From: Gemmatimonadaceae bacterium
GTDB lineage: Bacteria; Gemmatimonadota; Gemmatimonadetes; Gemmatimonadales; Gemmatimonadaceae
Assembly (NCBI GenBank): GCA_051859245.1
Contig: JBHYGA010000005.1
Location: 256,001-320,000, forward strand
Reading direction: 5' to 3'
Length of the DNA stretch: 64,000 nucleotides
A model generated the notes under the pieces. That model was not told where the DNA came from and ran no database searches. It worked only from the letters and a program-made list of their open reading frames with translations. Positions 14,940 through 39,901 of this stretch are shown here, in pieces (positions within the stretch are counted from its first letter, which is position 1; every line of letters starts with the position of its first letter). The translations under genes and the position numbers were made by a program.

Positions 14940-15782
14940 GTGGCTGAGTCCCCGCTCAATGCTGAGCAAGTTGCGGCGTTTCTCGACGGCCGGTTGTCAG
15001 ACGCTGAGCGCGCGGTGGTGCTGGCGCAACTTGCGGAATCACCAGAGTGGCAAGACATCGTGGTCGATGCCGCTGCCGTTCGCGACACGAACGCTTTGAT
15101 CACGCCCGCGCGCGCTACGAGCGCGCCACGCTTTCGATTCAAGCGCGGTCTGCTGCTCGCGGCTGCGGCCGGCTTTGTAGTGTTCGTGACTCTCTGGAAC
15201 AAGGGCAGAGCAGGCGTGAACGGTGAATCACCGGCGGTCACGCCAACCAACGCGCTGGCACTCGCTGTTGCAGACGGAACACTCCGTGAGCTTTCGACAG
15301 ACAGATGGTCGGTGGTGCGCTCGGCTTCCAATGATGTTGACGAACTGGCGCGTGCAGTACGACTGGGCGCGCTGTCGGTTGATGCCGTGCTGGATCGCAC
15401 TGGCGCAGGCGCAGTCGCACGAGAAGAGATGCTCGTGTTGCTGCAGGAGCTCAACGCGTCTGCGGCGCGGCAGCTCGTTGCGTCAGCGCGTGACTCGGCT
15501 TCGTTCGACGTGGCGTTTGCGTCGGTACGCGCACTCGTGAATACGGATGCGTATGACGCGGGTGTATGGCTGGAGCTGCTACGCGCGGGCAGCGTCGCGG
15601 CTCGCGAGAACACCAACATGATTCAGGTATTGCAGAGCGTTGCACGAACCAAACAGCTGTCGCCGGAGCGCGCTACGGAACTGTCGGCGCGCATCCGGCG
15701 ACTTGAAGACGTTTTGCCTTCCGCCGAGCCTTCACGTGTACGTGAAGCCGCGACGGATGTTATGAAGATCCTGGCGTCGTAA
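14940..15782 (+). CDS. Putative anti-sigma factor (zf-HC2-like N-terminus, one TM)
   Basis: GGAGG RBS, GTG 14940; EQVAAFLDGRLSDAERAVVLAQLAESPEW (zinc ligands lost), TM LLLAAAAGFVVFVTLW; follows the ECF gene. Confidence 0.75.
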   Translation: MAESPLNAEQVAAFLDGRLSDAERAVVLAQLAESPEWQDIVVDAAAVRDTNALITPARATSAPRFRFKRGLLLAAAAGFVVFVTLWNKGRAGVNGESPAVTPTNALALAVADGTLRELSTDRWSVVRSASNDVDELARAVRLGALSVDAVLDRTGAGAVAREEMLVLLQELNASAARQLVASARDSASFDVAFASVRALVNTDAYDAGVWLELLRAGSVAARENTNMIQVLQSVARTKQLSPERATELSARIRRLEDVLPSAEPSRVREAATDVMKILAS

Positions 15783-15809
15783 ACGCGATCAGAAAACGAT
15801 TCATTGCTA

Positions 15810-16571
15810 TCAGTTGTCGGGACAGTCGATGCAGTAAGCAGAAGGGCAGAGGCGGTATGGGTTCTCATAGCCCGCGCCGCGGACAATATTCGCCATCGTG
15901 CAAACTTTCTTCAGATCTGGCCCGAAATAACGAGGAACAGCCACTTGCATGTCGCAGAGTGCAAGGAGGTCGTCTGTTTCCTCCAGGTGTTCCCCCGACT
16001 TGGTCTCGCCACAATCCGGCGCCTGATCCTTGTCGGTTAGATTTTCGATCGTGACAAAAATGTTCGACACGCTAGTGTCCAAGTTTATCGGTGCTCCGCC
16101 GCTGAATGTTCCCTTGTCATTCAGCTCCAGTGATGCTGCACCGGCCGCATTGAGTCGTATGCTCGTGCCGTAATCCAATTGGTAGGACTCACCGTTGAAG
16201 CTGACGGGTCCAATGTTTCGAGCGCTCTTTCGCTCCAGCACCTGCAGAGGCAATCGCAGGGATGCGAACACGTCGCGGGAAAGTGCAGGATTCGCCGAGC
16301 CCGCAGCAGACGAGGCTCTCGCGCGCACTTTCAACATCCAAGGTGGTACCTGTGAGTCTGGTGCTGCGCCAGCGGTAAGTCCCTTTGTGGTCAGCGTGAA
16401 GTCCTGGAGCGTCTGACGAACTGGGTCAACAGCTTTCCCGTGCGTGTCGATCGTCAGATACGGACGGTGCTGCTGATTCGACCCAACAGCCTTCGGAAAC
16501 AAAACATCCCAGTGTTCCTTCCTGCGAATCCAAAGCGACAATCCTTCCACAGAGATCGTAACCGTCGTCAC
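15810..16571 (-). CDS. Hypothetical protein downstream of CHAT protease, Cys-rich C-terminus
   Basis: AAGGAG RBS overlapping the CHAT stop, GTG at 16571; ends CPSAYCIDCPDN. Confidence 0.7.
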   Translation of the reverse strand: MTTVTISVEGLSLWIRRKEHWDVLFPKAVGSNQQHRPYLTIDTHGKAVDPVRQTLQDFTLTTKGLTAGAAPDSQVPPWMLKVRARASSAAGSANPALSRDVFASLRLPLQVLERKSARNIGPVSFNGESYQLDYGTSIRLNAAGAASLELNDKGTFSGGAPINLDTSVSNIFVTIENLTDKDQAPDCGETKSGEHLEETDDLLALCDMQVAVPRYFGPDLKKVCTMANIVRGAGYENPYRLCPSAYCIDCPDN

Positions 16572-16585
16572 CTGACCATCACTCC

Positions 16586-19500
16586 TTAGCTCCCCAAGAG
16601 CTGGAAGGCGGCCCACACACGGGGAGAACGTCGTGTGGGATCCTGTGAACGAAGTCCCGCGAGTTGCGCCTCGCGCAGGGCGTGCGCCGGCGTCGCGCCG
16701 CCGCGCAATGCAACGTGCAACTGTTCCATGATCGCGGCGGTCGCTTGATCGTCGATTGCCCACGACGCGCCAATGACATGCTTTGCACCGGCCTCTCGAA
16801 AGGCACTCGCCAACGACAACATGCCGCCGCCAAAACGCGAGGTATTGTTCGATGCCCCGGCGCGCACGCCGCCGCGGGTATCGCACGCGGCGAGCACAAC
16901 AAGTGCCGTGCGCGGGAACGACGCCGCGGCCACTTGCACGCCCGTGATTCGAGTATCGCCGTTCGCAGGCAACTCCAGATATGATCGTTCGGGGCGCTCC
17001 GGATGCAGCACTGCGTGACCCGCAAAGTGCACAATCTCGTAGGCGGGCATTCTTGCCAGTGTCTGTGTTGCACCCTGCGCGGCGTCGAGCGCTTCACTTT
17101 GATTATCCCACACCGCGCTCAATCGCTGTACTTCGCTCTGCGCTCCGGGAAGTGCGCGTGATCCGGAACGCGGTGCGGCATCGATAACCAGAACACGCGC
17201 ACGATTCAGGCGTGTCTCATTTGTCAGGCGCTGCCCGATGTCGTTTGTGAGCCAGATCGCGGCTCGCTCGATAAGGAACCGATCGGCACTGGCATCGAAC
17301 AGCGCGGCCCAGGATACGTCAGACAGATCGCCGCGCGCGTCGATTCGTATTGCGCGCACCGCTCGGCTGGATGTGGCGAGTGCCGGCGCAACTAGCGCCG
17401 TGAAGAGCGTGGAAAGTTGAGAGGTCTCCAGCGTTCTGATGGCGCTGTGGACAGTTCGTGCCGGAAGGTACGATCTATGTACGCTCCAGCCGCCGCCGTT
17501 TCGTGACCACACGAATACCGTGTCACCAAGGCGGCGTGCGGCGAGATCAAGCCGAGTGGTATCGCTGTCCCACGTGGGCAGCCGGGCCGCCATGAACGGC
17601 CTCGCCGAGAGCGCGTACAAGAGCGCCTCGGCGTCGCCTCGTTTGCGCAGCAGCTCCGCGGCAGCTTCGCCGGCCGACACGGCGCTCTCCGAGAGTCGAA
17701 CTCGTTCAGACAACGAAGTGTTTTCGCCGCTGCGTGCTTCGAGTGATCGCAGCAGCGAGTCGAGCACTCGCAGCGCGGTCACCGTGTCGCCTTCCTGCGC
17801 GATTGCGCGGGCCAGAGACAATCGGGGGCGCAACTGGCGCGCGCTATTGGTATCGCTGGCCATTAATGCGATCGAAGAGTCCAGAAGTGCTCGCGCACCA
17901 CGCTGGCGAGTGAGGAGTTGATACTCACCTTTGATCCACGATCGTTCTGCACGATAGAAGCGTTGGTCGGATTCCGCCAACTGCGCATGCACGACAGAGT
18001 CGAGCGAGCCAATTACGCGCCTAAGTCCGGCACTGTCCCGTTGACGCGAGCGAGAGTGCGCACGCAGCACAAGTTCCTGCGCGACAAGATCCGGACGTGC
18101 GAGCTGTTGCGCAACGTGCACCGCTTCTTGATGGAGGAGATCCGAGAGTGTGTGGTGGCCGTAGATCTCTGCCGTTTGTCGCAGCACGGACAACAGGCTC
18201 CAGCGCGACGCACCAAGTGGTACAACACTCCGCTCGAGTGCACGCTGCGTGTTCTGTTCGCTGCGCTCATCATCACCGACCAGCGTTGCAATGCTCGCCG
18301 CCATAGCATAGGCCGACAGCGCACATTCGTTGCGGCCGATTGCACCACAACGTTCGGCTTGTAGTTCAACGCGTTGCAGGCCACTCACTTGCTCACCAAG
18401 TGCCATGAGCGCCAGGCCTTCATTGAACGCCAGTCGTCCGCCGAGCACTGTGGTTGGCGAGCGTTGCCCGGCACCGAGCGCCCGGTATGCTCGCAGCGCT
18501 TCGCGCGATCGGCCGCTGGTTAATAGGTTGTTCGTTCGATACATCGCGGCCCACAGTCGCAGCTCGTCTGAAGCACGCGTAAGTGTGGCGACCGAATCAA
18601 ACATCGCGTCGGCGGTGAGTGCTCCGTGCACACGTGTCTTTCGTCGAGCCTGTGCGTACAGGTCCGCGGCGCGAACAAGCGAGCGCTGTCGTTCCGAGCC
18701 GGCGCGGGCTTGTGAGATCGACGAGATTGCGTGTCCAATGCTCGAATCCGCCAACTGCGATTGCAGGTTCTGATGAATGTGGAGTAGATCGCGGCGCAGC
18801 GTAGTCTCACGGAGGCTATCGCCGCTTGCGAACCGTTGCGCCCACTCGGGGAGCAGCTGTGTGGTCGCATAGTCCCACGCGGCGTCAGGCCATTGGCCAC
18901 TCAGGGCAATGGCGCGTTCGTCGGTGCCCAGAGGTGGGCTGTTATCAATGATCACCGGAAGTTTGCACTGCAGACGGGCGCATGACCTCTCACAGTGGTC
19001 GCGTGTACGTGCGATCTGCTGGCGTAGCGAAAGCCAGGCGAGGGAGACGATCGCGTTCCAGCAGGATAGACGGTCCGGGTTGTCGCGATTCACAAAAGTC
19101 GACGCGAGTTCCGCCGCCTGCAGGAGATCCGGCAGCCTGCGATTCACGCTGTATCGAAGCAGCAGTGTTGCGGCGAGGTCATTGCTGAACTGCGCTCGCG
19201 CCGGGGCAGCGAGGACAGCCTCAGTGAGCAGTGCAATCGCGCGGTCGACGCCCACAGAGTCCGCTGCAGCGACGAGTTGCACGAGCGCGAGTTGGTGAGC
19301 CGACTCTGGTGTCGGGCTGCTGGTATGCCTCGCGGCGAGCGAGCTTTCGATTGCGGCAAGTTCTTGCAGGTCGCTCGGCGCGGCGACACGTGTGGACGAC
19401 GTGCAAGACGGCTGTGGTGCTGCGAGGTATATCGTGTCGCAGGTGTGTCCGGGTAGCGCCGAGAGCGCGGCGGCGAATCGCCAGTTCTTCGCGAACGGTG

Positions 19501-19660
19501 CGACTTCAATTATTAACGCTGACTGCTCACTTCGATTGCACGCGCAGAGTGCGAAGCCGAGGGCGAGCAGCGCGCCGCGCCATGATTTCGCCGTGACTCG
19601 CAACGTTCGGATTGATTCGGGCATGAACGTCTGCAGTACAGGCAAAAGGGTGGGCAACAT
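16586..19660 (-). CDS. TPR-CHAT domain caspase-clan protease, probable lipoprotein
   Basis: CHAT motifs LPGAQSEV, IVHFAGHA (His 17015-17017), VVLAACDT (Cys 16883-16885), ALREAQL, WAAFQLLG; N-terminal ALLALGFALCAC lipobox-like; alternative start 19624. Confidence 0.9.
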   Translation of the reverse strand: MLPTLLPVLQTFMPESIRTLRVTAKSWRGALLALGFALCACNRSEQSALIIEVAPFAKNWRFAAALSALPGHTCDTIYLAAPQPSCTSSTRVAAPSDLQELAAIESSLAARHTSSPTPESAHQLALVQLVAAADSVGVDRAIALLTEAVLAAPARAQFSNDLAATLLLRYSVNRRLPDLLQAAELASTFVNRDNPDRLSCWNAIVSLAWLSLRQQIARTRDHCERSCARLQCKLPVIIDNSPPLGTDERAIALSGQWPDAAWDYATTQLLPEWAQRFASGDSLRETTLRRDLLHIHQNLQSQLADSSIGHAISSISQARAGSERQRSLVRAADLYAQARRKTRVHGALTADAMFDSVATLTRASDELRLWAAMYRTNNLLTSGRSREALRAYRALGAGQRSPTTVLGGRLAFNEGLALMALGEQVSGLQRVELQAERCGAIGRNECALSAYAMAASIATLVGDDERSEQNTQRALERSVVPLGASRWSLLSVLRQTAEIYGHHTLSDLLHQEAVHVAQQLARPDLVAQELVLRAHSRSRQRDSAGLRRVIGSLDSVVHAQLAESDQRFYRAERSWIKGEYQLLTRQRGARALLDSSIALMASDTNSARQLRPRLSLARAIAQEGDTVTALRVLDSLLRSLEARSGENTSLSERVRLSESAVSAGEAAAELLRKRGDAEALLYALSARPFMAARLPTWDSDTTRLDLAARRLGDTVFVWSRNGGGWSVHRSYLPARTVHSAIRTLETSQLSTLFTALVAPALATSSRAVRAIRIDARGDLSDVSWAALFDASADRFLIERAAIWLTNDIGQRLTNETRLNRARVLVIDAAPRSGSRALPGAQSEVQRLSAVWDNQSEALDAAQGATQTLARMPAYEIVHFAGHAVLHPERPERSYLELPANGDTRITGVQVAAASFPRTALVVLAACDTRGGVRAGASNNTSRFGGGMLSLASAFREAGAKHVIGASWAIDDQATAAIMEQLHVALRGGATPAHALREAQLAGLRSQDPTRRSPRVWAAFQLLGS

Positions 19661-19763
19661 CGCCGCCCAATTGTCTGCTCTTTGAAGACATTGTCAAGCA
19701 GCCGTCTCGGGGTGAAGGTCTCGTAGCGGCGAGTTAGCGAGCTCTGCTATTGGCAAGCGTGTC

Positions 19764-19792
19764 GAGAAAACTGCGTGCCGTGTCCGTCTAAA
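19764..19792 (+). promoter_or_regulatory. Candidate ECF promoter, motif A (GAGAAAA-N10-TGTCCGTCTAAA)
   Basis: Same boxes and spacing as 13984-14012; upstream of the PEP-CTERM gene. Confidence 0.6.
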
Positions 19793-19899
19793 CCGAAAGC
19801 GGCAGCTCCCATGACGACATGAGATTTCGTGCCATCGTCAAGAGCTGATCTCCACGCAGACGCCCACAAGCCCACACGCCCAAACGCGAGAGGTCCAAC

Positions 19900-20973
19900 A
19901 TGAAAACCATCACTGTGCGCAGCGGACAAGCAACATCGCCCAATCGTGAGTCGATGGGAGCCACGGACTTCCTCAGGCACACGCTGCTCGTCGCGCTTTC
20001 TTTGATTGCAATTGGACCGCTCGACGCGCAGTCTGTGTTCACGCGGTCCCGCGTGGACGCTGATGTAATCCCGAGCTACTATTTCGCAGCGCAGCCGAGC
20101 ACTGCGGGCTGTCAACAGATCGGTTCAGGCGCAGGCTCGGCCAGCTCGGGCGTATCATGCATCCCAGGTTCGGGCGTGAGCGGTGAGGCCTCTGCAAGCC
20201 TCCAGAATGGCGTGTTGCGGTCGCGCGCTCGTCTCAGCGCGAGCAACGGTAGTTTTGCACCGGCCGGATCGAGTGGCGCGGACTTCATGGCAGTGTCTCG
20301 CGTTGACTACTCCGATCGCATCACGTTTTCGGTGCCAATCGGCGTGACGCTCACATCGTACCGGTTTCTGATTGATTGGGGCGGCCAGATGGTGGAGCCA
20401 ACGGCCAGCGTCGCCGGGCTTTCAACATTCTCGCTCGGCGCACTCTACTTCATTGGCAGCGGTGGACCATTCTCGCCGTTCGGCTGGGTCGGCATCACGC
20501 GTTCGTTCTCCGGACTGCCGTCTGACAATCTGGTCGTGCAGGAGTTTGAAGGCTCCTTCGACGGAACGGCCACGCGCGCGCCCGATGCGTTCGGCAGTAC
20601 GGTTACGACGATCAACGGTGTCTCGGCGTTTGACGGACTGCTGACATCAAACACATTGGACTTTACCTTCGCGCACACCAGTGAAGTTCAATGGCGCAAC
20701 CTGTCCTCGAACGTCGTGTCAGGCGTTTCACAGGAGCTCTATTCCGACTTCTCAAACTCAGCGCGCATTGCCGGGCTCCGATTGTTCGATGGCGACCGTG
20801 ATGTCACTGACCGCGTGGGTGTGAGCTTTGCGTCCGGCTTTCAGCTACCGGTTGAGGTGCCTGAACCGTCGAGCGCGCTCCTGACGATTGTTGGCGTGCT
20901 GGGATTGCTCGCGCATCGAATTCGGTGTGCGGGGCGTCGTGCACACCGACAGCGATTGGTCGCCAGCAGATAA
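19900..20973 (+). CDS. PEP-CTERM sorting domain surface protein
   Basis: Signal peptide, C-terminal VPEPSSALLTIVGVLGLL plus basic tail. Confidence 0.88.
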   Translation: MKTITVRSGQATSPNRESMGATDFLRHTLLVALSLIAIGPLDAQSVFTRSRVDADVIPSYYFAAQPSTAGCQQIGSGAGSASSGVSCIPGSGVSGEASASLQNGVLRSRARLSASNGSFAPAGSSGADFMAVSRVDYSDRITFSVPIGVTLTSYRFLIDWGGQMVEPTASVAGLSTFSLGALYFIGSGGPFSPFGWVGITRSFSGLPSDNLVVQEFEGSFDGTATRAPDAFGSTVTTINGVSAFDGLLTSNTLDFTFAHTSEVQWRNLSSNVVSGVSQELYSDFSNSARIAGLRLFDGDRDVTDRVGVSFASGFQLPVEVPEPSSALLTIVGVLGLLAHRIRCAGRRAHRQRLVASR

Positions 20974-21026: not shown

Positions 21027-24000
21027 TTACTCCGGTGACGATACTTCTGCGAGAGTTCGTTCGACGTCCCACCGCATCAGCCGGCCCGCACGGTCCACGC
21101 CGTACAATGACTTACCATCCGGCGAAAACTCGACGCCTTGGATTTCAGAGCTCGAGGCGACTAGACGGGCCAGCCGCCGGCCGCTCTTGAGCTCGAAGAC
21201 GCGAACAAATGCTCGCTCGTTCGATGTCCCAAACGTCGCGGCAAGTCGGCCATCTGGAGAGACGGCGACTCGTGCGGAAGCATACTCCTGTAGTCTTTCG
21301 GGCGGCACGCTGTCAGCGCCGCTCCAGCTGGCGATCTGGAGCTCTCTGGTCTCTCTCGTAGAGAGGAGCATGCCGCAGCACTCTGGCAGCGGCGTCAGCG
21401 CCCTCACCTCGATTGGTGAACGTGAGCGCGCGACAACACTGCCGGTCGCAGTCTCGAGCCGCAGCAAGGTAGCATCTTCGGCTGCAACAACGAGAAACCG
21501 TTCGTCAGCGGTGAACGACAGCGCCGTGACAGTTGCTCCGCTCTCACGCAGCCGCAACTTCTCTACGCCTGTGTTGGCGTCAAGCAGTCTCACAACGCCA
21601 TCTCGATCACCGACCGCCACCAGCGCTCCCCCTGCCGAAACTGCCACGGATGTGAAGACGTCGGAAGGATCTTGCCACTCCCATATCGTTTCATTCGTTC
21701 GCAAGTCTTCAACCCTGAGGTGTGGAAAGAAGCCGTTGATAACGGCGACACGGTCGGTCTCGGGGATGCCGACCGCCATTTGGATCGACGAACTCTGCTC
21801 CGACTTACGCCGACCGATGATCTTGCCACTTGGGATCTCAACAAACAGTAACTCGCCTGAATGGGCTCCCAGCACGAGTGCGTTGCGGCGCCCTGAAAGA
21901 CCTACTGCCCGTATCCAAGCCGACAGACCGAAGTTTGCCGTTTCAACGGCATCGTAGTCGCGCTCGCGAAAAACAACTTCGCGAGCTGCCGTGCCTGCAA
22001 CGCTTTCATCGGCACCAGCCAGCCGCGCCATCTCGGTATTTCCTACTGATTCATCGAACGCCTCAAAACGTGGCGACACCGAGAAATCGAAAAACGCGGG
22101 CCGCTGAAACCTCTCCTGTTTTCCCTTGCGAGCCCCGGAAAAGCCAAAGCCGCGATTGGCAGGTTTGAACTCGCCAGTTACCACCTCGCGGTGTAGCGCT
22201 GGCACCCGCGCGGCTCCGAAGGCCAGCCACTCCGATAGCTGAATTGATCCGTCGGTCGGCTTAAAGTCAGCCAAGCCCTGACGTAATCCTTCCTCCAGTA
22301 GGACATAGCTGAGGAGCCCTTGCCGCAGTTTTCCGCTCTCCAGAGCCACGTCTGCCGCCTGACTGGCGGTAAGCACGAGCATCTGCTTGTCGTAAGCAAG
22401 CTGACCGAGTGCCGGGCTGGCGAAAGGTCCTGGCCGAAAATCCGAACCCTCCACGCTTGCAGCGGAGTGACACGCGTCGAGGATCAGCGTGATTTCGGAA
22501 TCCACGGGTCGTAACCACTGCGCCAGCTCAGTACTCGAAATCGCCCTCGAAAGAAGCGACTCGTCAAACACTGAGCCTCCGTTTCGAGCTGGTCCGACGT
22601 CTTCCGGAAGAAAGTAGAAGATCCCATTTGGGGCGGTGTAGCCATGTGTTGAGATACTGATCACAACCAGATCTCTCGGTCCGACTTTTTGCAGCTTATC
22701 CGCCGATGGGATTTGCGCGCGTAGCGCCGGTTCGATTTCGGCTCCCGCAAGCAACGCCAGGATTCCTCGGAGTACTGCTTTCGTCGCGAGTGTTCGATCT
22801 GCAGCACCACGCTCGGCAATGAGCGGTACGGCGACCACGGCGTCAAAGTCGTTCGTTGCCGTGATTGTGCTCCAGAGCGTCTGCTGAAACAGGCGTGCAT
22901 CGCGCGCGGCATAGGAAAGATTCCAGTATGGATCGCTGTAGTCATTAACGCCCATCGAAATGACGTACGCTCTGCGATTCTCTGGGGCGTTCCAGCTGTC
23001 GGATCCCGGGCGTGCTGGCACAGACAAGGTTCGGGACGCGACCACGCCGCGAACGCCATCGTCGCTGAAGGCCGCTGCCGTAAAGGTCACCTCGCGTTGA
23101 GCGTTTCCCGATGGTAGCAGAATGTTCGGCCACGTCACCCTGGTACTTCCGTCCTTGTCCAGATCCAGTCGCTCCGCTTGCGAGGCGACAAGTCGTCCGT
23201 TTCGGAATAACTGAAGATCACGAGCACCGCTCGCCATCGCGCCGCGCCGTTCCTCACGAACTTCGACGGAGACGGAGACCGACTGGAAATCCGGAGCAAC
23301 CTTAAAGGCTGCAATTTTGGACGATGGGCGGAGAATCGCTTGGTTGGGGCGAGGACTCAACTGGGGCATTGAATCGCCAGCGGCGACGATGGCAACGAGC
23401 CGAGGTTGAAAGCGATCGCGCATAACGCTCTCGAGCGGAATTGGCTCTGCCCGATTCTCACCTTCAACCAAGCCGAGCCCGTCGAGGGCACGCAGATCGC
23501 CTGCATCGAACCTTCCCTCAGGCGTCACGACTACCCAGCGATTTCGTTCGTCTGCCACAAACGTCAGAGTGGCGAGGGTTCGCAGATCTACGAGGTCCAT
23601 CAAATCAATAGTGCCGCTGTTGCTGCCCGCGGCGACAAGCCGCCCTTCCGAAACGATCGCGAGCGCTCGAAGGTCCTTCACAAAAGTGCGGTGGCTGACA
23701 CGCTGGCCGGTTTCGTACTCGAACCGAGAGACGTGCGACACGTCTTCGAAACCGTTTGTCGCCACTATTACGCTGCGATCGTCCGCCGACGGCACGATTG
23801 CCGTAACTCCACCCTCCACCGACCATCGGCGAATCTCTTTCCCGCTGTCCAACTCGCGGAGTGAGAGCCAACCGTACCCGCCTGTCAGTAGTCGGTCTCC
23901 GCGCTTGGTGGGCGCTATTACCGCGCGACTGGAGGACGCGTCAAGATCTGCGGGCCGAGTCGCGAAACGGCTCACCATACGTCCGCTTCGATCCCACACC

Positions 24001-25837: not shown

Positions 25838-25926
25838 TTGTCCATCAGATACGCTCCACCCCAATTGGCGAGCGTGCTGCAGGGCCACACGTTGCTCTCC
25901 TTCCCTCATACTTGCGTCCGTATTCC

Positions 25927-32224: not shown

Positions 32225-34318
32225 CTATTTCCGCTTCGGCACAGTATCGAGAATATCAATGCGGTGCGATAGCGTAGTCCAACCGACAATAGGCTTGGGA
32301 TTTGAACGCCACTTGCCGCTATCATTTGGGCCTTTGTCGTTAGGACCGCGCGCGCCGTCGCAGGCGCCGAACGACTCGACGAGCGGCTGGAAGCTGAACT
32401 GATCAGAGTTCACAACCATCTTCAGCATTTCACTGCCGACCGGTTCCAGCATTGGAATCGACTCACCGACAAGTATCCATTTGTTCATCTCGATCGGAGA
32501 ATGTGGAATACCTGCCGGAGGCCACAGCACAGCTGGATCGGAGGTGTAGCCGCCGATCGCGATGGTCATGTACAACGACGAGATTTCGGCTTGCTGCAGC
32601 TGTGCGTCTGCCCGAGCGTACACATCGTAACTTTTGCCCAGGAGAACTGAGTCGGGTATTCCCGCAGGGCGCAGACCACGCGGTGCCCCTGCTCCCGCAG
32701 GCACTAAACGTATGTCCAACGTGAGACCTGTTGGCGGTGTTGGATTCTCGATGCTATTGAGCGACGTGATCGAAAGCGCGCGAATCAGCGGGCGGCACAG
32801 CGCGTTGCCACGATAGCCCACGATAGAATCCACTCGCACTGCCTCGTCTGGCTGCGGGGCCAGGGCGACGCCGTTTACAAAGACCCGCGCAACGCCGAGA
32901 CTCTGAGCAACGATGGCGTCTGCAGACGCGGAATCCACGATCACAAAGCGGCTCGAGTCTCGGCGTACTTCCGTCGCTAACGCCATGGCGCTCTTGTCGA
33001 AGTACACTTTCAATCGATCAACGCGATTCGCGCCGAGCGGAACACGCGACAGGACGGCGCGTGCACTGACCGGCAGCGTCGGTTTGGTGAACGAACTTCC
33101 GGCGGCGCCGAGCACGCTGCCTTGCTCATCGACGTACACGGCGAAAGCTCGTTCGGCAACCACAGAGTCAACGCGTACTCGCGCAATGGGAGCCGAGGAA
33201 AACTGCACCTCGCCAGAGCGATACACGTCGTAGTTCGCGGTCTTTCGCACACCGTGAATAGCGCCGGCGTCGAGGACCAGCCGACCACCCACTTCTCGCG
33301 CCGTGACGAACGGCTGTGCTGCCACGCCTTCGTTGGATTTGAAAATCAGAGCCGTCTGATCACCTTCGAGCTGCGGCACCTGCGGCAGCATTGCGCCGCG
33401 CACGTTCGATCGCAAACGCTGAATGAGCTCGTCGTACCGCAGTCCACGTGTTCCCGCGGCACCGTCAAGGGCGCGCGTCAGATGATACGTCATCGCGCCA
33501 ATCCACACACGCGTTCCGTCTTCATCATACGGAAGCTCCTGCGCCGTTTGGTCACTGCGCGCCGCGGTGATCAACGTGTGTCCACGCGCTTCGGTGAAGT
33601 CCGCGAGGCCGCCCGTATCTGGCAGCGCGATCGTGTCTGGTTTGGGGCCCTTGTCCCGCCCGACGGCATCACCATCTCCACGCGTCACGGTGCCAGAATA
33701 GCACGCATCAATAATGATCGTGACGTTCTCGGTGCCGAGCGCTTTCAGATACGCTCGAATGTCATCATCAAGCACCAGCTGCGACGGATTGTGCGCGTCC
33801 TCCGCATCAAACGGTACAAGTCCCTCGTCACGTCCGTCCGGCTCATCTTTGTCCACACCATCGGGCGCGTGCGATCCGTGACCAGAAAAGTAGATCACCA
33901 CCGCGTCATCTTTGGTCAGCGCGCGCTCAGCCAACCACTTGAATCCAGCCGCGATCCCGGCCTTGGTCGCCGAGGAGCCGAGCAATACGCGCGTGTCTTC
34001 GGTGGCGCCAAAGCCCCAGCGATTCAGGCTGACCTGCAGGCGTTTTACATCGTTCTCCGGGCCCTGCAAATCGGACAGCGGCTTTGTCCCCGCTCCAAAA
34101 TGCTGGTAGTCCGCAATGCCGATCAGCAGCGAAATCTTGCGAGGAGCACGCGTAACCTTCGTTCCGACGACATCCGCCGCGTGGAGACGCATCTCGGCGC
34201 TCGAGGCGCTGGCGAGAGCAACTGGGAGGGGACGCGACCACCCCAGGGAGATGGAAGCGCTTGCCAAGATGGTGGCGACGGAAGCCGTGCGGACAACCTG
34301 TTTGCGCGATGGGCGCAT
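32225..34318 (-). CDS. Secreted peptidase C14 (caspase/metacaspase family) with C-terminal DUF4384-like domain
   Basis: LLIGIADY, LQGPENDV, YFSGHG (His 33878-33880), IDACYSGTVTRG (Cys 33701-33703), QVPQLEG, LDAGAIHGV. Confidence 0.92.
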   Translation of the reverse strand: MRPSRKQVVRTASVATILASASISLGWSRPLPVALASASSAEMRLHAADVVGTKVTRAPRKISLLIGIADYQHFGAGTKPLSDLQGPENDVKRLQVSLNRWGFGATEDTRVLLGSSATKAGIAAGFKWLAERALTKDDAVVIYFSGHGSHAPDGVDKDEPDGRDEGLVPFDAEDAHNPSQLVLDDDIRAYLKALGTENVTIIIDACYSGTVTRGDGDAVGRDKGPKPDTIALPDTGGLADFTEARGHTLITAARSDQTAQELPYDEDGTRVWIGAMTYHLTRALDGAAGTRGLRYDELIQRLRSNVRGAMLPQVPQLEGDQTALIFKSNEGVAAQPFVTAREVGGRLVLDAGAIHGVRKTANYDVYRSGEVQFSSAPIARVRVDSVVAERAFAVYVDEQGSVLGAAGSSFTKPTLPVSARAVLSRVPLGANRVDRLKVYFDKSAMALATEVRRDSSRFVIVDSASADAIVAQSLGVARVFVNGVALAPQPDEAVRVDSIVGYRGNALCRPLIRALSITSLNSIENPTPPTGLTLDIRLVPAGAGAPRGLRPAGIPDSVLLGKSYDVYARADAQLQQAEISSLYMTIAIGGYTSDPAVLWPPAGIPHSPIEMNKWILVGESIPMLEPVGSEMLKMVVNSDQFSFQPLVESFGACDGARGPNDKGPNDSGKWRSNPKPIVGWTTLSHRIDILDTVPKRK

Positions 34319-34466: not shown

Positions 34467-34534
34467 TTGTCCTTCACCGGCAGCAGAATAGGCGATCCCA
34501 AACGCCCAGGCGCTCGGTCGACGCGAGTGCTCGA

Positions 34535-34559
34535 TGGCATTTTCTCCCGGCACCGGCAT
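34535..34559 (+). promoter_or_regulatory. Candidate autoregulatory ECF promoter, motif B variant (TGGC-N15-CGGCAT)
   Basis: -10 box ends 7 nt before the sigma ATG at 34567. Confidence 0.55.
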
Positions 34560-34566
34560 CTCCTGC

Positions 34567-35214
34567 ATGGATGAACGCTCGTTGAGCGAATTGCTCGTTA
34601 CTCTGCGCGATGGCTACGAGCACGAGCGCGACGTTGCATGGGCGGCTTGCTACAGTCAGTTTCGCGATTTGGTGTGGACCCGGGTGTTTTATGTTATCCG
34701 TACCATTCCGTGGCTCCCGGAGCCGCGCGAGGTCGTGGAAGAAATCACAAGCGATGTCTTCGTCGGGTTGCCGACGGCGGTGCGCGCGTATCGTGACAAT
34801 GGGAAAGGGGAGCAGTGGCTCAAGCAGGTGGCCGTGCGGACAGCGTTGCGGGCGCGGGAGCGTATTACAGGTGATTGGAAAAGACGCGATCCTTCTGCGT
34901 TGTCGGCCTCGCTCGATCGGCCTGGCCGCATCTACTCTTCGTTCGACCATCATGCGAATGACATCGTTGACGCGCTGGATGCGATCAAACGCGACGAGCT
35001 CCTGGAGCTCGAACGTCGGATCGACGTGATGCGAAGCAGTGCCGATCCGCGGCAGCAGCGGTGGGCAACATTTCTCGATTTGTATCGGGAAGGCTTCGGC
35101 TTTGCAGAGATCGGCCAGCGCATGGGGTTAACCGAGGGAACAGCTCGTAACTGGCTCGTGGAAATCAGGCGGCAGCTGGCAACACCGCCCGCCGAGGTGC
35201 GTCTGCATGGCTGA
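34567..35214 (+). CDS. ECF-type sigma factor
   Basis: AWAACYSQF..EEITSDVFV..QWLKQVAVRTAL region 2; EGFGFAEIGQRMGLTEGTARNWL region 4 HTH. Confidence 0.85.
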   Translation: MDERSLSELLVTLRDGYEHERDVAWAACYSQFRDLVWTRVFYVIRTIPWLPEPREVVEEITSDVFVGLPTAVRAYRDNGKGEQWLKQVAVRTALRARERITGDWKRRDPSALSASLDRPGRIYSSFDHHANDIVDALDAIKRDELLELERRIDVMRSSADPRQQRWATFLDLYREGFGFAEIGQRMGLTEGTARNWLVEIRRQLATPPAEVRLHG

Positions 35215-35953
35215 GCGTCACAGCAGCACGTCGGATCCCGACGATGACCCGTTGCGTCCGCTTCATGCGCCGGATGACGAGGACACGCAGCGTGTAGAAG
35301 CGATGCTCAGCTTGTCGAGTCGCGCGCCCGTTTCACTCGATGCCCGCGTCGCTTCTCGGCGTGAAGCCGGAGACCACGTACTGCTTCCGGTGCCGGAAAC
35401 TGAGCCCACGTCCACGCGCGAACATCGCTCTCCGGCGCGGCGATTCATTCTGCCCGCCGGCATCGCGGCCGCGGCTGTGCTCTCGTACTTCCTGTTCCCC
35501 CAGACGGAGAAGAGTTCGGCCGGTGATCAGCGATTGGCACAGAGCGATTCGAGTGTGCCCGCGAGCGCTTCCGACTCGGTCCACGAACCGGCGTCTCACC
35601 GCGACTCGTCGTCATCCCGCGCGGACCGACTGCCGAGCACCACGCCCGAACGCGGCGATGTTGCGCTGGGTTACCGTGGCGCGGGAACGGCGATCTTCAC
35701 GGCACGAATGCGCGACTTTCGCGAGACGACGGTGGATTCGGTAGCCGACGCCACACTGCGCGACACGACGTACAACATCATCATCTCGCATCCGACGGGT
35801 AACGCCGAACTCGCCGCGCTGGCCAAACGGATTGGGCAGGCGCTGACAGGTCGTGGTGTGAAGTTGTCAGCCGTGCACATTGACGAGGGCGGAGCCGCCG
35901 CTTCCATCGGCGCAGTAACCATTGAGGTTCGATCGGCAGATCGGATCCCCTGA
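35207..35953 (+). CDS. Putative anti-sigma factor, single TM
   Basis: Overlaps the sigma stop; TM FILPAGIAAAAVLSYFLF, Ser-rich linker, small C-terminal domain. Confidence 0.65.
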   Translation: MAERHSSTSDPDDDPLRPLHAPDDEDTQRVEAMLSLSSRAPVSLDARVASRREAGDHVLLPVPETEPTSTREHRSPARRFILPAGIAAAAVLSYFLFPQTEKSSAGDQRLAQSDSSVPASASDSVHEPASHRDSSSSRADRLPSTTPERGDVALGYRGAGTAIFTARMRDFRETTVDSVADATLRDTTYNIIISHPTGNAELAALAKRIGQALTGRGVKLSAVHIDEGGAAASIGAVTIEVRSADRIP

Positions 35954-35997
35954 CCGATCCACGCGCCGCGCACCTTCTCCACGAAAGTTGACGCTGA

Positions 35998-37431
35998 CTA
36001 TCGACCGGGAATCCGGTCCGCAAACGGTGCCCAATCGAACACCGAGAGCGCGAAGTACAACTTCGGTTTTCCATACCCGTCAACAATGCGCACCTGCGAC
36101 GCATCGGCCACAACGTCACCAACGCGCGCGCCCACGAGCGATTGCTGCCGCATCCACATTGCGCCAGCGCTGACCTTCAGAAAACCGAGCGACACCGCAG
36201 TACCAATGCCGGCTCCGGTCACATCACCTGCGGCAACAACAACCTCAGGTAGCCACACCGCAAGGCCACTGCCGTCGCGGCGATCGAGGCCCCTCCAGGT
36301 GAAGCCCAGTGTGCCGCCGAGTCCAAAGCGACGGTCCGTCCGTCCGCTTTCATAAACGCGTGCTCCGCCATCCACATCCTCGGTCGCGTACGTCGGAAAC
36401 CGTCCGCCCGGTGCAGCGATGCCAGCAATCGCCACCGCCGGTCGAATGAACGGCTGGGGCTGCACAATGACCGTGTACTCGGCCACCTCACGACTTGCAA
36501 TGCGAGCCAGTTCGGCCTCGGTGCGCGGCTCTACGCGGATCGTGACGGACCGTCCGCTCGTGCGGCTCCCTTTCGCAACACCTGCGCTCCATTTCGAGCA
36601 GGAGTTCGCAACAATGCCAACGAGTCGTTCCGCACGATAGGCGCTGGCCAGCAGCGATTCAAAGTCTGCCAAGGCAGACTGCGCACGCACATCGAGCACG
36701 CGCACCGAATCGCGCAGCGCTTGCCATCGCGCGTCTTCGTACGATTGCCCGAGTGTGGCGACTCGCATGTTCTCCGTGGCACCACTCAGGGCAACCAGAG
36801 ACGAGAGCAACGACTCCGCCGTCGGCAGACGCACCGGCTCTTGTGCTCCGCATGACTGCCCCACACTGAGCCGGCGACGCAGCGGTTCCGCTGCCACTTC
36901 CGGTGCAACGTTGCGTCGCATCTGTTCAAGCGCGAGCAGTGTGGTTGTGATCGTTGGCTGCAACCCGCGCTCACCAAACACCGCTTCGTCGATTTGCATC
37001 AGGCTTCGCTCCGCCGTGCCCAGCGCGAGCGCGAGTGCCAGGCGCGCGTCAGCGACATTCTGTGCGGGCTCGATGAAGCCTGCGCCACGCGAACCCGAAA
37101 GTGCGGACCGTAGCTCGGGCACATACGGCGTGAGTCGGCTCGCGAAACCCGACAGCGCCTGCGCCTCCGGCAGTGGGACCGACGCGCTGGTCCGACTGAA
37201 GTTGTACAGCGCCGTGTTGGTGTTCACCACGTCGATCTCCACCGGTACATTATGCGGCAATCGGACCACCGCGTGACTTCCGAGCGCACTGGTGTCCGCC
37301 CGTACGCCGCGCTGTACAATCAGTCGCAGTGCTCCGGTCCCGTGATCGATTTCAACGCGCGCGCGCTGCGCGCGTGCATCAGTGGCGACGAGAGCAATCA
37401 GGACGAGGAGTATGACGGATCGCAAGCGCAT
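35998..37431 (-). CDS. Secreted hypothetical protein (paralog of 37636-39114)
   Basis: Signal peptide ending ARA|Q; beta domain, helical middle, beta-rich C-terminus. Confidence 0.75.
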   Translation of the reverse strand: MRLRSVILLVLIALVATDARAQRARVEIDHGTGALRLIVQRGVRADTSALGSHAVVRLPHNVPVEIDVVNTNTALYNFSRTSASVPLPEAQALSGFASRLTPYVPELRSALSGSRGAGFIEPAQNVADARLALALALGTAERSLMQIDEAVFGERGLQPTITTTLLALEQMRRNVAPEVAAEPLRRRLSVGQSCGAQEPVRLPTAESLLSSLVALSGATENMRVATLGQSYEDARWQALRDSVRVLDVRAQSALADFESLLASAYRAERLVGIVANSCSKWSAGVAKGSRTSGRSVTIRVEPRTEAELARIASREVAEYTVIVQPQPFIRPAVAIAGIAAPGGRFPTYATEDVDGGARVYESGRTDRRFGLGGTLGFTWRGLDRRDGSGLAVWLPEVVVAAGDVTGAGIGTAVSLGFLKVSAGAMWMRQQSLVGARVGDVVADASQVRIVDGYGKPKLYFALSVFDWAPFADRIPGR

Positions 37432-37471
37432 GATGCTGGTTGGTTGGTGGGAACAAGGAGCCAGGCACAGA

Positions 37472-37497
37472 ATGCCGGTGACGGTCATTCCGTGTCA
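37472..37497 (-). promoter_or_regulatory. Candidate ECF promoter, motif B (TGAC-N16-CGGCAT)
   Basis: Back-to-back with the copy at 37520. Confidence 0.55.
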
Positions 37498-37519
37498 TTG
37501 CGCGCATCGCGTCAAACGG

Positions 37520-37544
37520 TGACGTTCCAGAGGTTTAGCGGCAT
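37520..37544 (+). promoter_or_regulatory. Candidate ECF promoter, motif B (TGAC-N15-CGGCAT)
   Basis: Upstream of 37636. Confidence 0.65.
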
Positions 37545-37635
37545 TCAAAGTACAACGTGGTCAGACGCGAGTCCCGCAGCACCGAAGGGTCGCTTTGGGA
37601 TGCCAGACGAAGACACACACTATCACCGACACCAG

Positions 37636-39114
37636 ATGTCGCTTTCCCGCAAGCTTCTCACGGCGATGTTTCTCGCGACGGCGCTGCCAACACTGGCCCC
37701 CGCGCAGCCAACCACGGCTACCCGCGCGGCGGCAGTCGACACGTCGCGCGCTCGCACGCGACCCGCCCGCGTGGTGTCGTCCCGAGATCCGTGGACGGTT
37801 GTCTATGATCACGTTACAGAAACGATGAAAGTGAGCGACCATCGAGGTCGCATCCAGTCATCTTTTGCTGGCGCATCGTTGATTGATGGTCCGGTGGTCC
37901 GCATTCCACCCGACCGTCCGGTGGAAGTACGCATCACCAATGCGAACCCCATGTTGTACCGGTACGATGTTACAGGTCCGGTGGTACAGGAGCGTCGAGC
38001 GCGAAGCTGTCGTTCGGTGCTCGGGACATTTGCGCAAGCGGGCCTTCAGTTCAGCGCCGCGAACATTGCTGGCGTGCAAACCAAGTGGACCACCGACACG
38101 CTGATGCGCAGGGTGTTCTCGGCGTCTGACCTCGCACGGCTTGGTGGGACCGCCGTGCGCGGTGAACCGCTCAGCGACGCTGATCGTGCGCGTACGATTA
38201 GCCTCGTGCAAGAGCGTGTGGAGTCGTACGAATCACGGGCCGAAGCAATCGGTGATTTTGCCTCCACCATCGATGACTCGCTGGCACGAATCGCTGAACT
38301 CTCCGATGCGACGCCCTCTGGTACGATGCTCGACGGCCTCGCGGGTACGATTCGCAAATTCCTGCCCAGTGCAAACCGCTCTGTTGATGTTCCGCTGTCA
38401 CTTCGCGCACTCGAACAAGAGGCGCAGCAACCGGCTACGGTGCTGATGCAGCTTGCTGCGACCGGCGACAGTGATGTACGACCGCTTCGCATTCGTTTCG
38501 ATAGCGCGTTAACGCAGATCGCTGCAAGCTACCGAAAGCTGCAAGCGCAGCTGTATCAGATCGAACAATATCAACTTGGCGTTGATCAGCGTTGGACGCT
38601 TGACCCGAGCGCCGACTACCGCGCGGTACGCATTCGCATGGAGGCGACGTCAGGCTTTGCCGAGATTCCGCGCTTTAAAGCGGGAACAGTGGAGGCCTTG
38701 ATCAACCCGATCAGTCGAGTGGCGTGTAGTCTGGCTCCCGGCTTGACGATCGCGAACGCGCCACGTGCGTTTGCCCTCCGGAACGACACCATCGTGAGTG
38801 CCAATAAATCAGATCAGCGTGCGGCACCGGCCCTGCAGTTGCACCTCGACATCGTGGATTTTCCATTGCCGGTCGGCGTGCTCGCCGGAGTGGGACTGGG
38901 CGTGAATCAGCGACCGGATTGGTATCTCGGTGGGAGCTTTCGACTGACTGACATTGTGCGCCTGAATGCCGGTACGCTCTGGCAACGGGAAGAACAACTT
39001 GGCAGTGGTCGCGAGCTCGGTTCCATAGTGCCACCGGCGCAGCGCCCCGCATTTGATGCGAGGACGCAGAAGTTTGCGCCGGCGTTTTTCTGGGGAATCA
39101 GTTTGGTGCCGTGA
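37636..39114 (+). CDS. Secreted hypothetical protein (paralog of 35998-37431)
   Basis: Signal peptide ending APA|Q; VVRIPPDRPVEVRITNANPMLYRY matches the paralog. Confidence 0.75.
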   Translation: MSLSRKLLTAMFLATALPTLAPAQPTTATRAAAVDTSRARTRPARVVSSRDPWTVVYDHVTETMKVSDHRGRIQSSFAGASLIDGPVVRIPPDRPVEVRITNANPMLYRYDVTGPVVQERRARSCRSVLGTFAQAGLQFSAANIAGVQTKWTTDTLMRRVFSASDLARLGGTAVRGEPLSDADRARTISLVQERVESYESRAEAIGDFASTIDDSLARIAELSDATPSGTMLDGLAGTIRKFLPSANRSVDVPLSLRALEQEAQQPATVLMQLAATGDSDVRPLRIRFDSALTQIAASYRKLQAQLYQIEQYQLGVDQRWTLDPSADYRAVRIRMEATSGFAEIPRFKAGTVEALINPISRVACSLAPGLTIANAPRAFALRNDTIVSANKSDQRAAPALQLHLDIVDFPLPVGVLAGVGLGVNQRPDWYLGGSFRLTDIVRLNAGTLWQREEQLGSGRELGSIVPPAQRPAFDARTQKFAPAFFWGISLVP

Positions 39115-39151
39115 CTTTCGAACTGACGTGAGCCTCTTGTGCACCGAAGTA

Positions 39152-39901
39152 TCAGTTTGTTGTCAGCCGATATCGATTGTAGTACACGTCGTCCCAGTTC
39201 TTGATGACCAGCCTGTGCGTGCTCGTGGTCCTCGGATACCAGTCCAATACGCAGAAGTCAGTATCGTCAACATCGCGTGCAACGACTCGGCCGTTCTGGT
39301 CATACACCCAGCAGTCAAGGTCTGTATCTCCGTCGCCATTCACGCGAATTGATGCCAGTACACCACCCTCAAACGCAATGCGAAACGTGTCCGTGCTGTT
39401 GGCGTCGACATCAAAGACACCTGATTTCGGTCCGTTGACGGCACCGCGTGATCCCGATGCGTTACGCTGCTGCAGCTGCGCCACCACCAAGGTGAGATTG
39501 GCATTGTCACGACCAGCTGCCTGAGCGGATGCCAGGAGTTGGCCGACGTCGAGAGAAGCCTGAGCTCCAGCCTTCTGAGGCCTCGGACCCGGCGCGCCCG
39601 CCTTGTCCGATTCAGGAACAAGGGAAAGCGGCCGCGTAGGGTTGTCGAGGAGGAGCTGCGCGGCGGCAGCGAGTGCCAATCCAGAGTTAGTGCGCTGACC
39701 ATAGTCCGCGAGCTGCGCGGCGAGCGAGACTGCTTCCACAGCGTTCTGCGTCTGGGGTGTACTCGCAGGCCTCGGACGAGCAGTGGCGCTTTCCTTTGAC
39801 GAAGGTATGCCTCCGGAAGTGGTGGCGCAGCCAGCTGCAGCGGCCGATAGCAGTACCAACGTTGAGTTGCGAGCAAAGCGGGTAGAAAACGAGTGCATCA
39901 T
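39152..39901 (-). CDS. Lipoprotein with helical N-domain and C-terminal PPC-like domain
   Basis: Lipobox AAAGC; GDGDTDLDCWVYDQNG is a pre-peptidase C-terminal-like motif. Confidence 0.8.
   Translation of the reverse strand: MMHSFSTRFARNSTLVLLSAAAAGCATTSGGIPSSKESATARPRPASTPQTQNAVEAVSLAAQLADYGQRTNSGLALAAAAQLLLDNPTRPLSLVPESDKAGAPGPRPQKAGAQASLDVGQLLASAQAAGRDNANLTLVVAQLQQRNASGSRGAVNGPKSGVFDVDANSTDTFRIAFEGGVLASIRVNGDGDTDLDCWVYDQNGRVVARDVDDTDFCVLDWYPRTTSTHRLVIKNWDDVYYNRYRLTTN

Follow-up and report, generated by a model that had tools for sequence, protein, structure and literature searches.

The 64,000-nucleotide stretch analysed here (the window) covers positions 256,001 to 320,000 of contig JBHYGA010000005.1, in the assembly GCA_051859245.1 of a Gemmatimonadaceae bacterium. 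The genome spans 4.7 Mb in 11 contigs, and the G+C content of the window is 59-66%. We read the genes from 14.0 to 42.5 kb and assigned families with Pfam, NCBIfam, Foldseek and our own hidden Markov models (HMMs). This region encodes three caspase-like C14 enzymes, a CHAT protein, an M48 peptidase and two extracytoplasmic function (ECF) sigma factors, each followed by a gene for an anti-sigma factor, the second of them putative. A sequence-only reading of the same DNA had proposed that a recurring xR(G/S) motif, in apparent linkers or next to active sites of many of these proteins, is a shared arginine-specific cleavage code. Our analysis leads to a different picture: there is no statistically recurring code of this type, but certain basic residues are genuinely conserved one by one, among them one in each of the three C14 enzymes.

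The first of these enzymes, the WD40-caspase (21027..24962, minus strand), is an apparently exported WD40 protein of 1311 amino acids with a central C14 (caspase-like) domain. The TPR-caspase (29051..32152, minus strand), apparently exported as well, has its C14 domain at residues 45-282, followed by TPR (Pfam Peptidase_C14, E = 2.2e-16), while the third caspase (32225..34318, minus strand) joins a C14 domain at residues 60-320 (Pfam Peptidase_C14, E = 2.7e-22) to a C-terminal region without a known family. The predicted model of the TPR-caspase, with a mean predicted local distance difference test (pLDDT) score of 83.7, finds MALT1 (5.9e-10), AtMC9, Geobacter GSU0716 and Yca1 as its best Foldseek matches, and the family profile of the third caspase matches AtMC4 (9.6e-20), Yca1 (4.2e-16) and also TbMCA2. 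The C14 domain of the WD40 protein was missed by Pfam, and a PDB sequence search with it returned nothing significant; its fold is assigned by homology only, from a profile-profile comparison (hhalign) of its family with the TPR-caspase family (99.5% probability, E = 1.4e-22) and from the match of our TPR-caspase-domain HMM to the WD40 protein (1.2e-13).

All three enzymes carry a His-Cys dyad: H124/C186 in the TPR-caspase, where it is invariant, H147/C206 in the third caspase, and H773/C831 in the WD40-caspase (120/120 sequences). The S1 pocket of TbMCA2 is lined by Asp95 and Asp211 (PMC4357240). From our alignments, the equivalent positions are the Asp two residues before the catalytic Cys (Asp211) and the Asp of an 'ND' after strand 1 (Asp95). 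This pair is invariant in the third caspase (D90/D204) and present in 120/120 WD40-caspase sequences (D688/D829), and in the TPR-caspase family D184 is invariant and D66 is kept in at least 90%. The three proteins therefore show the features of subfamily C14B, namely the caspase-haemoglobinase fold, the dyad and an acidic S1 pocket. Because enzymes of the metacaspase and paracaspase type are concerned, specificity for Arg or Lys at P1 is predicted for all three, which is a reasonable inference by homology.

We scanned every aligned position of the three families for at least 85% Arg or Lys combined with a flank conservation below 0.45. The scan returned K223 as the only position out of 697 in the third caspase, R30 as the only one out of 420 in the TPR-caspase and, among 381 positions of the WD40-caspase, R937 together with a borderline R664 just before strand 1. 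All of these islands border sequence of variable length, and those of R30 and R937 accompany their C14 domains across phyla.

R30 of the TPR-caspase, with G31 after it (GTRGL; 32060..32065, minus strand), lies between the signal peptide and the catalytic domain. In an alignment of 60 of the 246 sequences found, the column holds Arg in 46 and Lys in 6, with 6 gaps; the next residue is Gly in 37, P2' is Leu in 16, Val in 14 and Phe in 6, and the flank conservation is as low as 0.21. It is the sole position at least 85% basic, both among the 35 arginines of the query and among all 420 positions. The same signal appears when no alignment is used: 49 of 112 TPR-caspase sequences have an [RK]G in the span 6-30 residues ahead of strand 1, against 21.0 expected, and 46 of the 51 occurrences fall 16-21 residues upstream of that strand. 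In the predicted model, R30 follows the signal-peptide helix (4-21) and precedes strand 1 (44-50); the block around it is of low confidence (pLDDT 54-56) and has no secondary structure assigned. The residue is not buried in the model, a point in favour of the sequence-only reading.

The other two islands lie on the far side of the catalytic Cys. R937 of the WD40-caspase (ANRGF, with G938; 22149..22154, minus strand) is Arg in 87 and Lys in 20 of 120 aligned sequences, out of 163 found, with Gly (59), Ala (15), Val (14) or Asp (13) next to it and a flank conservation of 0.19. Among the 29 arginines of the region it is the only one conserved amid variable context, and 10 of the 13 sequences with neither Arg nor Lys at this column have one within four residues. 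The residue falls in an insertion of about 24 residues, between a helix that aligns with helix 258-276 of the TPR-caspase and the last strand (Q-x-P). The insertion corresponds in position to loop L4 of caspases, which lies next to the substrate groove. K223 of the third caspase, followed by G224 (33647..33652, minus strand), was absent from the list given by the sequence-only reading. It is Lys in 24 and Arg in 10 of the 34 sequences, G224 is present in 34/34 and P2' is mostly Pro. It stands 17 residues past the catalytic Cys, in a linker (residues 215-246) that varies in composition and length and precedes a conserved HTLITAA block. A basic residue in the post-Cys linker is a feature of the autoinhibitory motif (AIM) of type II metacaspases, and only the third caspase shares it, the islands of the TPR- and WD40-caspases lying elsewhere.

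Each C14 family keeps a single basic residue, with Gly after it in most cases and then often a hydrophobic residue, in a flexible and variable segment by the catalytic domain. At the positions of these islands, clan CD peptidases are known to have segments by which they inhibit themselves or at which they cut themselves, and we propose that R30, K223 and R937 may be self-inhibitory or self-processing sites, a proposal to which we give about an even chance. The side chain of the island would occupy the S1 pocket of its own enzyme and would be cut on activation, as it is in type II metacaspases.

The proposal concerns single residues, and it has to be separated from the claim of a recurring motif. 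All 12 peptide strings on which that claim was built are encoded by the genes named and at the places given, although several of the ranges cover only part of the peptide (16871-16885 encodes CDTRG, 22146-22157 NRGF, 32057-32068 TRGL, 35672-35680 YRG and 38152-38163 AVRG). The recurrence itself did not hold. The 16 proteins of the locus contain 121 R[GS] dipeptides, against 130.9 +/- 10.2 in shuffled sequences (2000 composition-preserving shuffles per protein; 0.85 of them reached the observed count), and the ratio of observed to expected over 2338 long open reading frames (ORFs) of the genome is 0.89 for RG and 0.95 for RS. Without enrichment, the 12 listed sites are a selection from about 120 look-alikes, and their recurrence is in itself no finding.

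It could then be argued that the list is meaningless, since RG and RS are common in a proteome rich in Arg and Gly, as the shuffles and the genome-wide ratios illustrate. The per-site conservation makes this very improbable. We called a site conserved when at least 85% of the sequences have Arg or Lys and 33-119 homologs could be aligned or, as a weaker criterion, when every homolog has Arg or Lys and only 2-7 were at hand; the base rate was the share of each protein's own arginines that pass the same criterion, ranging from 1/35 to 35/109. Among the listed sites with usable homologs, 8 of 11 are conserved against 1.57 expected (Poisson-binomial P = 8.4e-6), and leaving aside two active-site motifs, 6 of 9 against 1.09 (P = 1.2e-4), figures to be read with the laxer criterion for small families and the mutual relatedness of the homologs in mind. 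In the alignable regions, 14 of 71 R[GS] dipeptides are conserved as Arg or Lys, and these divide into 8 of the 11 listed and 6 of the 60 unlisted sites (Fisher one-sided P = 3.6e-5). Chance is thus contradicted for the conserved subset; the overall pattern remains compatible with it. Implicit familiarity with protein families could also have guided the choice of sites towards conserved contexts that are unrelated to cleavage. The lesson is that a short motif may look recurrent while being no commoner than chance, and that the information lies in the conservation of each site.

Two of the conserved sites lie in catalytic-Cys motifs. The TRG of DACYSGTVTRG in the third caspase (R213-G214; 33677..33682, minus strand) is positioned seven residues after the catalytic C206, with R213 conserved in 34/34 and G214 in 31/34 sequences. 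R213 aligns with the Asp of the metacaspase CHSGxxxD motif in AtMC4 and, by offset, in Yca1. In TbMCA2, calcium is bound by Asp173, 189, 190 and 220, Asp220 being the fourth ligand (PMC4357240). The third-caspase family lacks this four-Asp site, as the Asp220 position is Arg in 34/34, and the DD pair (D184/D185) is kept; the calcium-independent AtMC9 is likewise without one of the four aspartates (PMC10235996). Because of this alignment with a calcium-ligand Asp, and because the sequence before R213 is conserved and of fixed length, we favour a structural role for R213 and consider it less likely to be an autoprocessing site. It is probably part of the catalytic-Cys motif, where it could possibly act as a built-in positive charge replacing calcium. 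The situation in the CHAT protein is similar. Its AACDTRG motif (16871-16885, minus strand) is the catalytic one: H882 and C926 are invariant in the four sequences aligned (the ortholog from genome G002 was left out for an internal TAG), and R929-G930, directly after the catalytic Cys, is invariant too and belongs to the active-site motif. The sequence-only reading had interpreted all its sites as substrate or autoactivation sites. That interpretation gains from the dyad and the acidic S1 positions of the C14 enzymes and from the conservation of several of the arginines, and it loses these two sites, which the catalytic-Cys motif explains.

The conserved arginines might all be of this kind, structural or ligand-binding residues in salt bridges, turns or domain-junction caps, unrelated to proteolysis and noticed only for their motif-like contexts. 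R213 at a metal-ligand position (PMC4357240) and R929 beside the CHAT Cys are plainly structural or catalytic, the [IV]-R-G of the M48 peptidase, the R-G-A-V-G-G-P of the lipoprotein and the W-x3-R of anti-sigma 1 (described below) are conserved as blocks, and 10-20% of the arginines in these proteins are conserved regardless. R30, R937 and K223 fit this explanation less well. They are isolated in sequence that varies in composition and length, which is unusual for a structural residue, and the segment around R30 is unstructured and of low confidence; moreover, the three islands fall where clan CD enzymes are known to be inhibited by, or to cleave, a segment of their own (PMC4357240, PMC10235996). 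Overall, we consider a purely structural explanation somewhat unlikely.

Beyond the C14 enzymes, conserved sites are present in other exported-looking proteins of the locus. The M48-TPR peptidase (25912..27807, plus strand; apparently exported; Pfam Peptidase_M48, E = 1.1e-13, plus TPR) contains R342-G343 in SIRGG (26935..26940, plus strand). In a set of 38 relatives of at least 560 residues, taken from the 45 best matches of a representative search, plus the query (39 sequences), column 342 is Arg in 34, Lys in 4 and Met in 1, followed by Gly (33), Ser (3), Thr (2) or Ala (1) and preceded by Ile (29), Val (8) or Leu (2), and the site is kept in all three orthologs obtained from genome searches. 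An insert of variable length follows it, and it lies 6-8 residues before the first TPR match; a PDB sequence search with this protein gave TPR matches only. Among the nine conserved basic positions of the protein, R342 has the lowest flank conservation (0.42).

The lipoprotein (39152..39901, minus strand; so called by inspection) has R152-G153 in GSRGA (39443-39448, minus strand), within [RK]-G-A-[VA]-x-G-P, which is found in 6/6 sequences, two of them at 30-32% identity, against a base rate of 2/18. To the eye, its C-terminal domain (GDGDTDLDC...) resembles a pre-peptidase C-terminal (PPC) domain, as does the domain at the N-terminus of the WD40 protein; Pfam gave no match on the lipoprotein, and Pfam PPC domains are present in C14 neighbours of two other genomes, G155 and G116. 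Paralog 1 (35998..37488, minus strand) and paralog 2 (37582..39114, plus strand, with an uncertain start in an ORF that opens at 37252) are apparently exported, belong to no known family and are weakly related to each other (BLASTP E = 6e-6 over 60 residues). In paralog 2, R193 of AVRGE (R193-G194; 38158-38163, plus strand) is kept in the three usable homologs, as RG, RG and RA, at 25-31% identity and with a base rate of 4/51; these were found among 300 genomes, the five genomes that we had chosen yielding none. In paralog 1, which matched only unnamed clusters in Atlas, the site is R134-G135 of GSRGA (37084-37089, minus strand), and the six homologs have GGRGG in the two closest, R-A in one and nothing comparable in three. 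The expectation that Arg is kept within otherwise variable linkers was thus borne out for the TPR-caspase R30, the WD40-caspase R937, the M48 R342, anti-sigma 1, the lipoprotein and paralog 2, and failed for the CHAT partner, the GARGP of the third caspase and paralog 1.

The anti-sigma 1 site belongs to a separate module. ECF sigma 1 (14088..14858, plus strand) is recognised by NCBIfam sigma70-ECF (46.8 bits, cut-off 42.9) and Pfam Sigma70_r4_2, and is followed by anti-sigma 1 (14898..15782, plus strand), a protein of 294 amino acids with a weak zf-HC2-like N-terminus, one hydrophobic segment and a helical outer domain. The zf-HC2 match (E = 4.9e-4) scores 20.6 bits against a cut-off of 22.2, and no His/Cys ligands are visible in the aligned N-terminus. 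The partner ORF (about 15810..16547, minus strand) has an uncertain start and overlaps the stop of the CHAT gene (16586..19660, minus strand), whose product of 1024 amino acids has a lipoprotein-type N-terminus by inspection and a CHAT domain at residues 749-1024 (Pfam CHAT, E = 1.2e-43). No match to the CHAT protein was returned by a PDB sequence search, and in a profile comparison with a TPR-CHAT neighbour from G328 no TPR was detected in its N-terminal ~750 residues. The partner, for which searches of Pfam, NCBIfam and Atlas gave no family, has a Cys-rich C-terminus and no visible signal peptide.

These genes stay together. Sigma 1 lies beside anti-sigma 1 in four further loci with the partner and CHAT genes and in two partial loci, and the partner gene is kept downstream of CHAT in four loci; G002, G007, G009 and another metagenome-assembled genome (MAG) have all four genes together, and a metagenome contig has part of the module. 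The site in question, WSVVRS (R141; 15306..15323, plus strand), conforms to W-x3-R-[SAG] and opens the first conserved block past the variable juxtamembrane linker. Its W and R are invariant in 8/8 sequences including the query (VVRS in four, then VQRA, RVRA, TMRG and ASRG), with a base rate of 5/29 arginines conserved in all homologs. Of the seven homologs, three are from genomes of the same genus, one is from another MAG and three are from metagenome contigs, and in public collections the family amounts to four loci on genome contigs and three on metagenome contigs, a narrow family, so that the count of 8/8 depends on few and related sequences.

The constant company of anti-sigma 1 raises the question of which enzyme would cut it. 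The conserved sites could be genuine cleavage or recognition sites and yet not be those of the C14 enzymes: the CHAT protease could act on them, or the M48 peptidase, or some housekeeping protease of the envelope. In the four other complete loci, the gene for anti-sigma 1 accompanies CHAT and not a C14 gene, separase, a CHAT relative, cuts after Arg (PMC11506125), and a CHAT protease of Haliangium activates a caspase-like protease by cleavage (bioRxiv 10.1101/2023.06.23.546230). For R30 and R937 this is harder to defend, as these islands travel with C14 domains across phyla in which a CHAT or M48 neighbour is not known, and as an account of the sites in general we find it distinctly improbable.

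Other genomes show whether these genes belong together. At the DNA level, the segment 21000-40900 gave only two matches of 30-40 bases, both in one genome, when compared with 14 other same-genus genomes, and the caspase/M48 stretch looks like variable, accessory gene content. As there was no DNA-level synteny, orthologs were sought protein by protein, and those of the sigma 1-CHAT module were found in 3 of the 14. In G073, an M48 gene, a TPR-caspase gene and an ortholog of the third caspase are contiguous. G155 has two C14 genes, an M48 gene, a paralog 1 homolog and a TPR-CHAT gene within 30 kb, and G116 has three C14 genes, a sigma 2 ortholog (58% identity) beside the third-caspase ortholog and a lipoprotein ortholog. 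In G328, TPR-CHAT genes flank the M48 gene, and a C14 gene has a lipoprotein-like domain encoded beside it; in G154, about 3 kb separate a paralog 2 homolog from a C14 gene. That these genes travel together while their order changes supports a functional connection, and does not indicate which enzyme is paired with which substrate. Within the genome itself, our HMMs run over all ORFs found the three C14 genes of the window plus one weak match on contig 4 (E = 3e-8), and the window copy as the only CHAT gene, the latter with a narrow profile built from four close orthologs.

The remaining genes complete the picture of the region. ECF sigma 2 (34534..35214, plus strand; Pfam Sigma70_ECF and r2) is divergent from the third caspase and is followed by putative anti-sigma 2 (35207..35953, plus strand), assigned by its position and one hydrophobic segment only. 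Anti-sigma 2 could be placed in no family; its homologs were weak N-terminal matches in 4 of 300 other genomes and 1 of the 5 chosen genomes, and its YRG (35672-35680) is not kept in the one, unreliable alignment that could be made. Between the CHAT and WD40-caspase genes, a protein of 357 amino acids (19900..20973, plus strand) is apparently exported and ends in a sequence weakly resembling PEP-CTERM (Pfam E = 0.052; for NCBIfam PEP_NF038129, E = 4.4e-5, which is below cut-off); in G002 its ortholog, at 75% identity, follows the CHAT gene. An RHS/YD-repeat protein with DUF6531 and a signal-peptide-like start (27816..29054, minus strand) is encoded between the M48 and TPR-caspase genes, a place where it is missing in G073, in which those two adjoin. 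A Ser/Thr kinase with TPR (40147..42513, minus strand) lies beside the cluster, a second one with a C-terminal TPR region is at 56235-58781, and a kinase also stands beside the CHAT/caspase/sigma set of G328. By eye, signal-peptide- or lipobox-like N-termini are present on all proteins but the sigma factors, the partner and the kinase. A Pfam search up to E = 1 gave nothing above cut-off for six otherwise unassigned proteins or for the C-terminal part of the third caspase, and PADLOC reported no defence system, only generic caspase matches and one HEAT-ARM_XIII match to the WD40 repeats.

Taken together, it is tempting to extend self-processing to cleavage in trans, with the M48 peptidase, the lipoprotein, paralog 2 and anti-sigma 1 cut at their conserved sites. 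We judge this fairly unlikely. More unlikely still is the complete scheme, an extracytoplasmic proteolytic relay that would turn envelope proteolysis into ECF sigma-dependent transcription. In such a relay, each of the exported Arg/Lys-specific caspase-like enzymes would be restrained by a basic 'bait' of its own, placed elsewhere in the fold from one enzyme to the next. On release, the enzymes would cut the conserved [RK]-G junctions of the co-encoded M48 peptidase, lipoprotein and paralog 2, and the CHAT lipoprotein would cut anti-sigma 1 at W-x3-R.

Several points weigh against these proteolytic interpretations, from self-processing to the relay. Apart from the absence of enrichment, the sites share no sequence context beyond a basic and then a small residue, as a common code would demand, and several listed ones are not conserved: the partner VRG (15876-15884) is kept in 0/3 orthologs, the Arg of paralog 1 in 1/6 by column, and R657-G658 of the third caspase (GARGP; 32345..32350, minus strand) in 18/34 and 14/34, not above its flanks. 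Many homolog sets are small and related (seven for anti-sigma 1, five for the lipoprotein, three for paralog 2 and two to three for CHAT). R342 of the M48 peptidase, the RGAVGGP of the lipoprotein and the anti-sigma W-x3-R are conserved jointly with their neighbours, in the manner of structural motifs, and conservation alone does not reveal whether a residue marks a cleavage site, forms a structural salt bridge or belongs to a binding motif. Since the S1 aspartates never vary in the three families, their covariation with the islands carries no signal. The AlphaFold model gives no confident docking of R30, so that occupancy of the S1 pocket is unsupported by the model. Export was judged from N-termini read by eye and not with a signal-peptide predictor. 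Finally, the WD40-caspase of this genome departs from its family near the active site (M847F, G848A, R850P, G851A and G860Q; position 850 is Arg in 111 and Lys in 6 of 120 sequences), and although the dyad is intact, this copy may be impaired or re-specialised.

The self-processing proposal matters for the families concerned. Exported TPR- and WD40-caspases of soil bacteria are very large families, and the islands bear on how they are silenced and what they cut: three families each receive one precise candidate residue (R30, K223 and R937), and their neighbours offer four candidate substrate junctions. If cleavage in trans were true, it would place caspase-like proteolysis outside the cytoplasm and link it to ECF sigma signalling. 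Biochemical characterisation had reached a single bacterial orthocaspase by 2017 (PMC5756287), and in the orthocaspase literature outside subscription journals, surveyed by title, we found nothing on conserved basic sites in exported TPR- or WD40-caspases.

Among the characterised systems, the closest to the islands is the AIM of type II metacaspases. In AtMCA-IIf (ITSR|ALP, Arg183) and AtMCA-IIa (AKDK|SLP, Lys225), the motif lies within S1 as a buried segment and is cut when the enzyme is activated (PMC10235996). The likeness comprises a C14B enzyme, an acidic S1 pocket and a single basic residue followed by a small and a hydrophobic one (R|AL, K|SL), and K223-G-P occupies the equivalent linker. 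In contrast, the islands at this locus are distributed over an N-terminal tail, a post-Cys linker and a loop before the last strand, in apparently exported multidomain bacterial proteins. For R30, parallels are MARTX-CPD, whose S1 pocket takes up a P1 residue located 30 residues upstream of strand 1, and TbMCA2 with its N-terminal gatekeeper (PMC4357240). In both comparisons, the active site is occupied or blocked by a residue that precedes strand 1 and is autoprocessed first, and R30 is 14 residues before strand 1 of the model. However, the P1 residue of MARTX-CPD is Leu, and the tail of the TPR-caspase up to R30 would be only ~5 residues long after removal of the signal peptide.

Paracaspases and orthocaspases offer partial likenesses. 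MALT1, with the consensus LxP/SR|G (PMC4659944), has a strict P1 Arg and a P1' Gly, and Foldseek ranked its chains first against the TPR-caspase model, but the sites described here show no preference for Leu at P4 or for Ser or Pro at P2, and MALT1 is eukaryotic and activated by dimerisation. The orthocaspase MaOC1 of Microcystis cuts after basic residues, becomes active only by autoprocessing and is calcium-independent (PMC5756287); it is a cytoplasmic, p20-only protein, whereas the present enzymes have TPR, WD40 or unassigned C-terminal domains and, by inspection, N-terminal export signals.

For the sigma 1-CHAT module, the relevant comparison is DdvA of Myxococcus xanthus, an anti-sigma factor fused to a periplasmic TPR-CHAT region, for which juxtamembrane self-cleavage followed by RseP has been proposed (PMC11506125). 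As in DdvA/DdvS, an ECF sigma factor, a membrane anti-sigma factor and a CHAT domain with a His-Cys dyad come together, and the window genes form a conserved module that resembles a two-protein version of the fused DdvA. Unlike DdvA, anti-sigma 1 (294 residues) and CHAT (1024 residues) are separate genes in all five four-gene loci, window included, the anti-sigma N-terminus of the window is by inspection without zinc ligands, and the ~750 residues before CHAT are not recognisably TPR. Finally, the type III-B CRISPR system of Haliangium unites a SAVED-CHAT protein that cleaves and activates PCaspase, which in turn cuts a sigma-factor protein, with a Ser/Thr kinase alongside (bioRxiv 10.1101/2023.06.23.546230). 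The gene set is alike in its CHAT protease, caspase-like protease, sigma factor and Ser/Thr kinase, but the Haliangium system is cytoplasmic and triggered by cyclic oligoadenylate, whereas the window is without CRISPR or CBASS and its proteases appear exported. If the relay were true, the locus would therefore be a periplasmic counterpart of the CRISPR-linked cascades that lead from CHAT to caspase to sigma factor.

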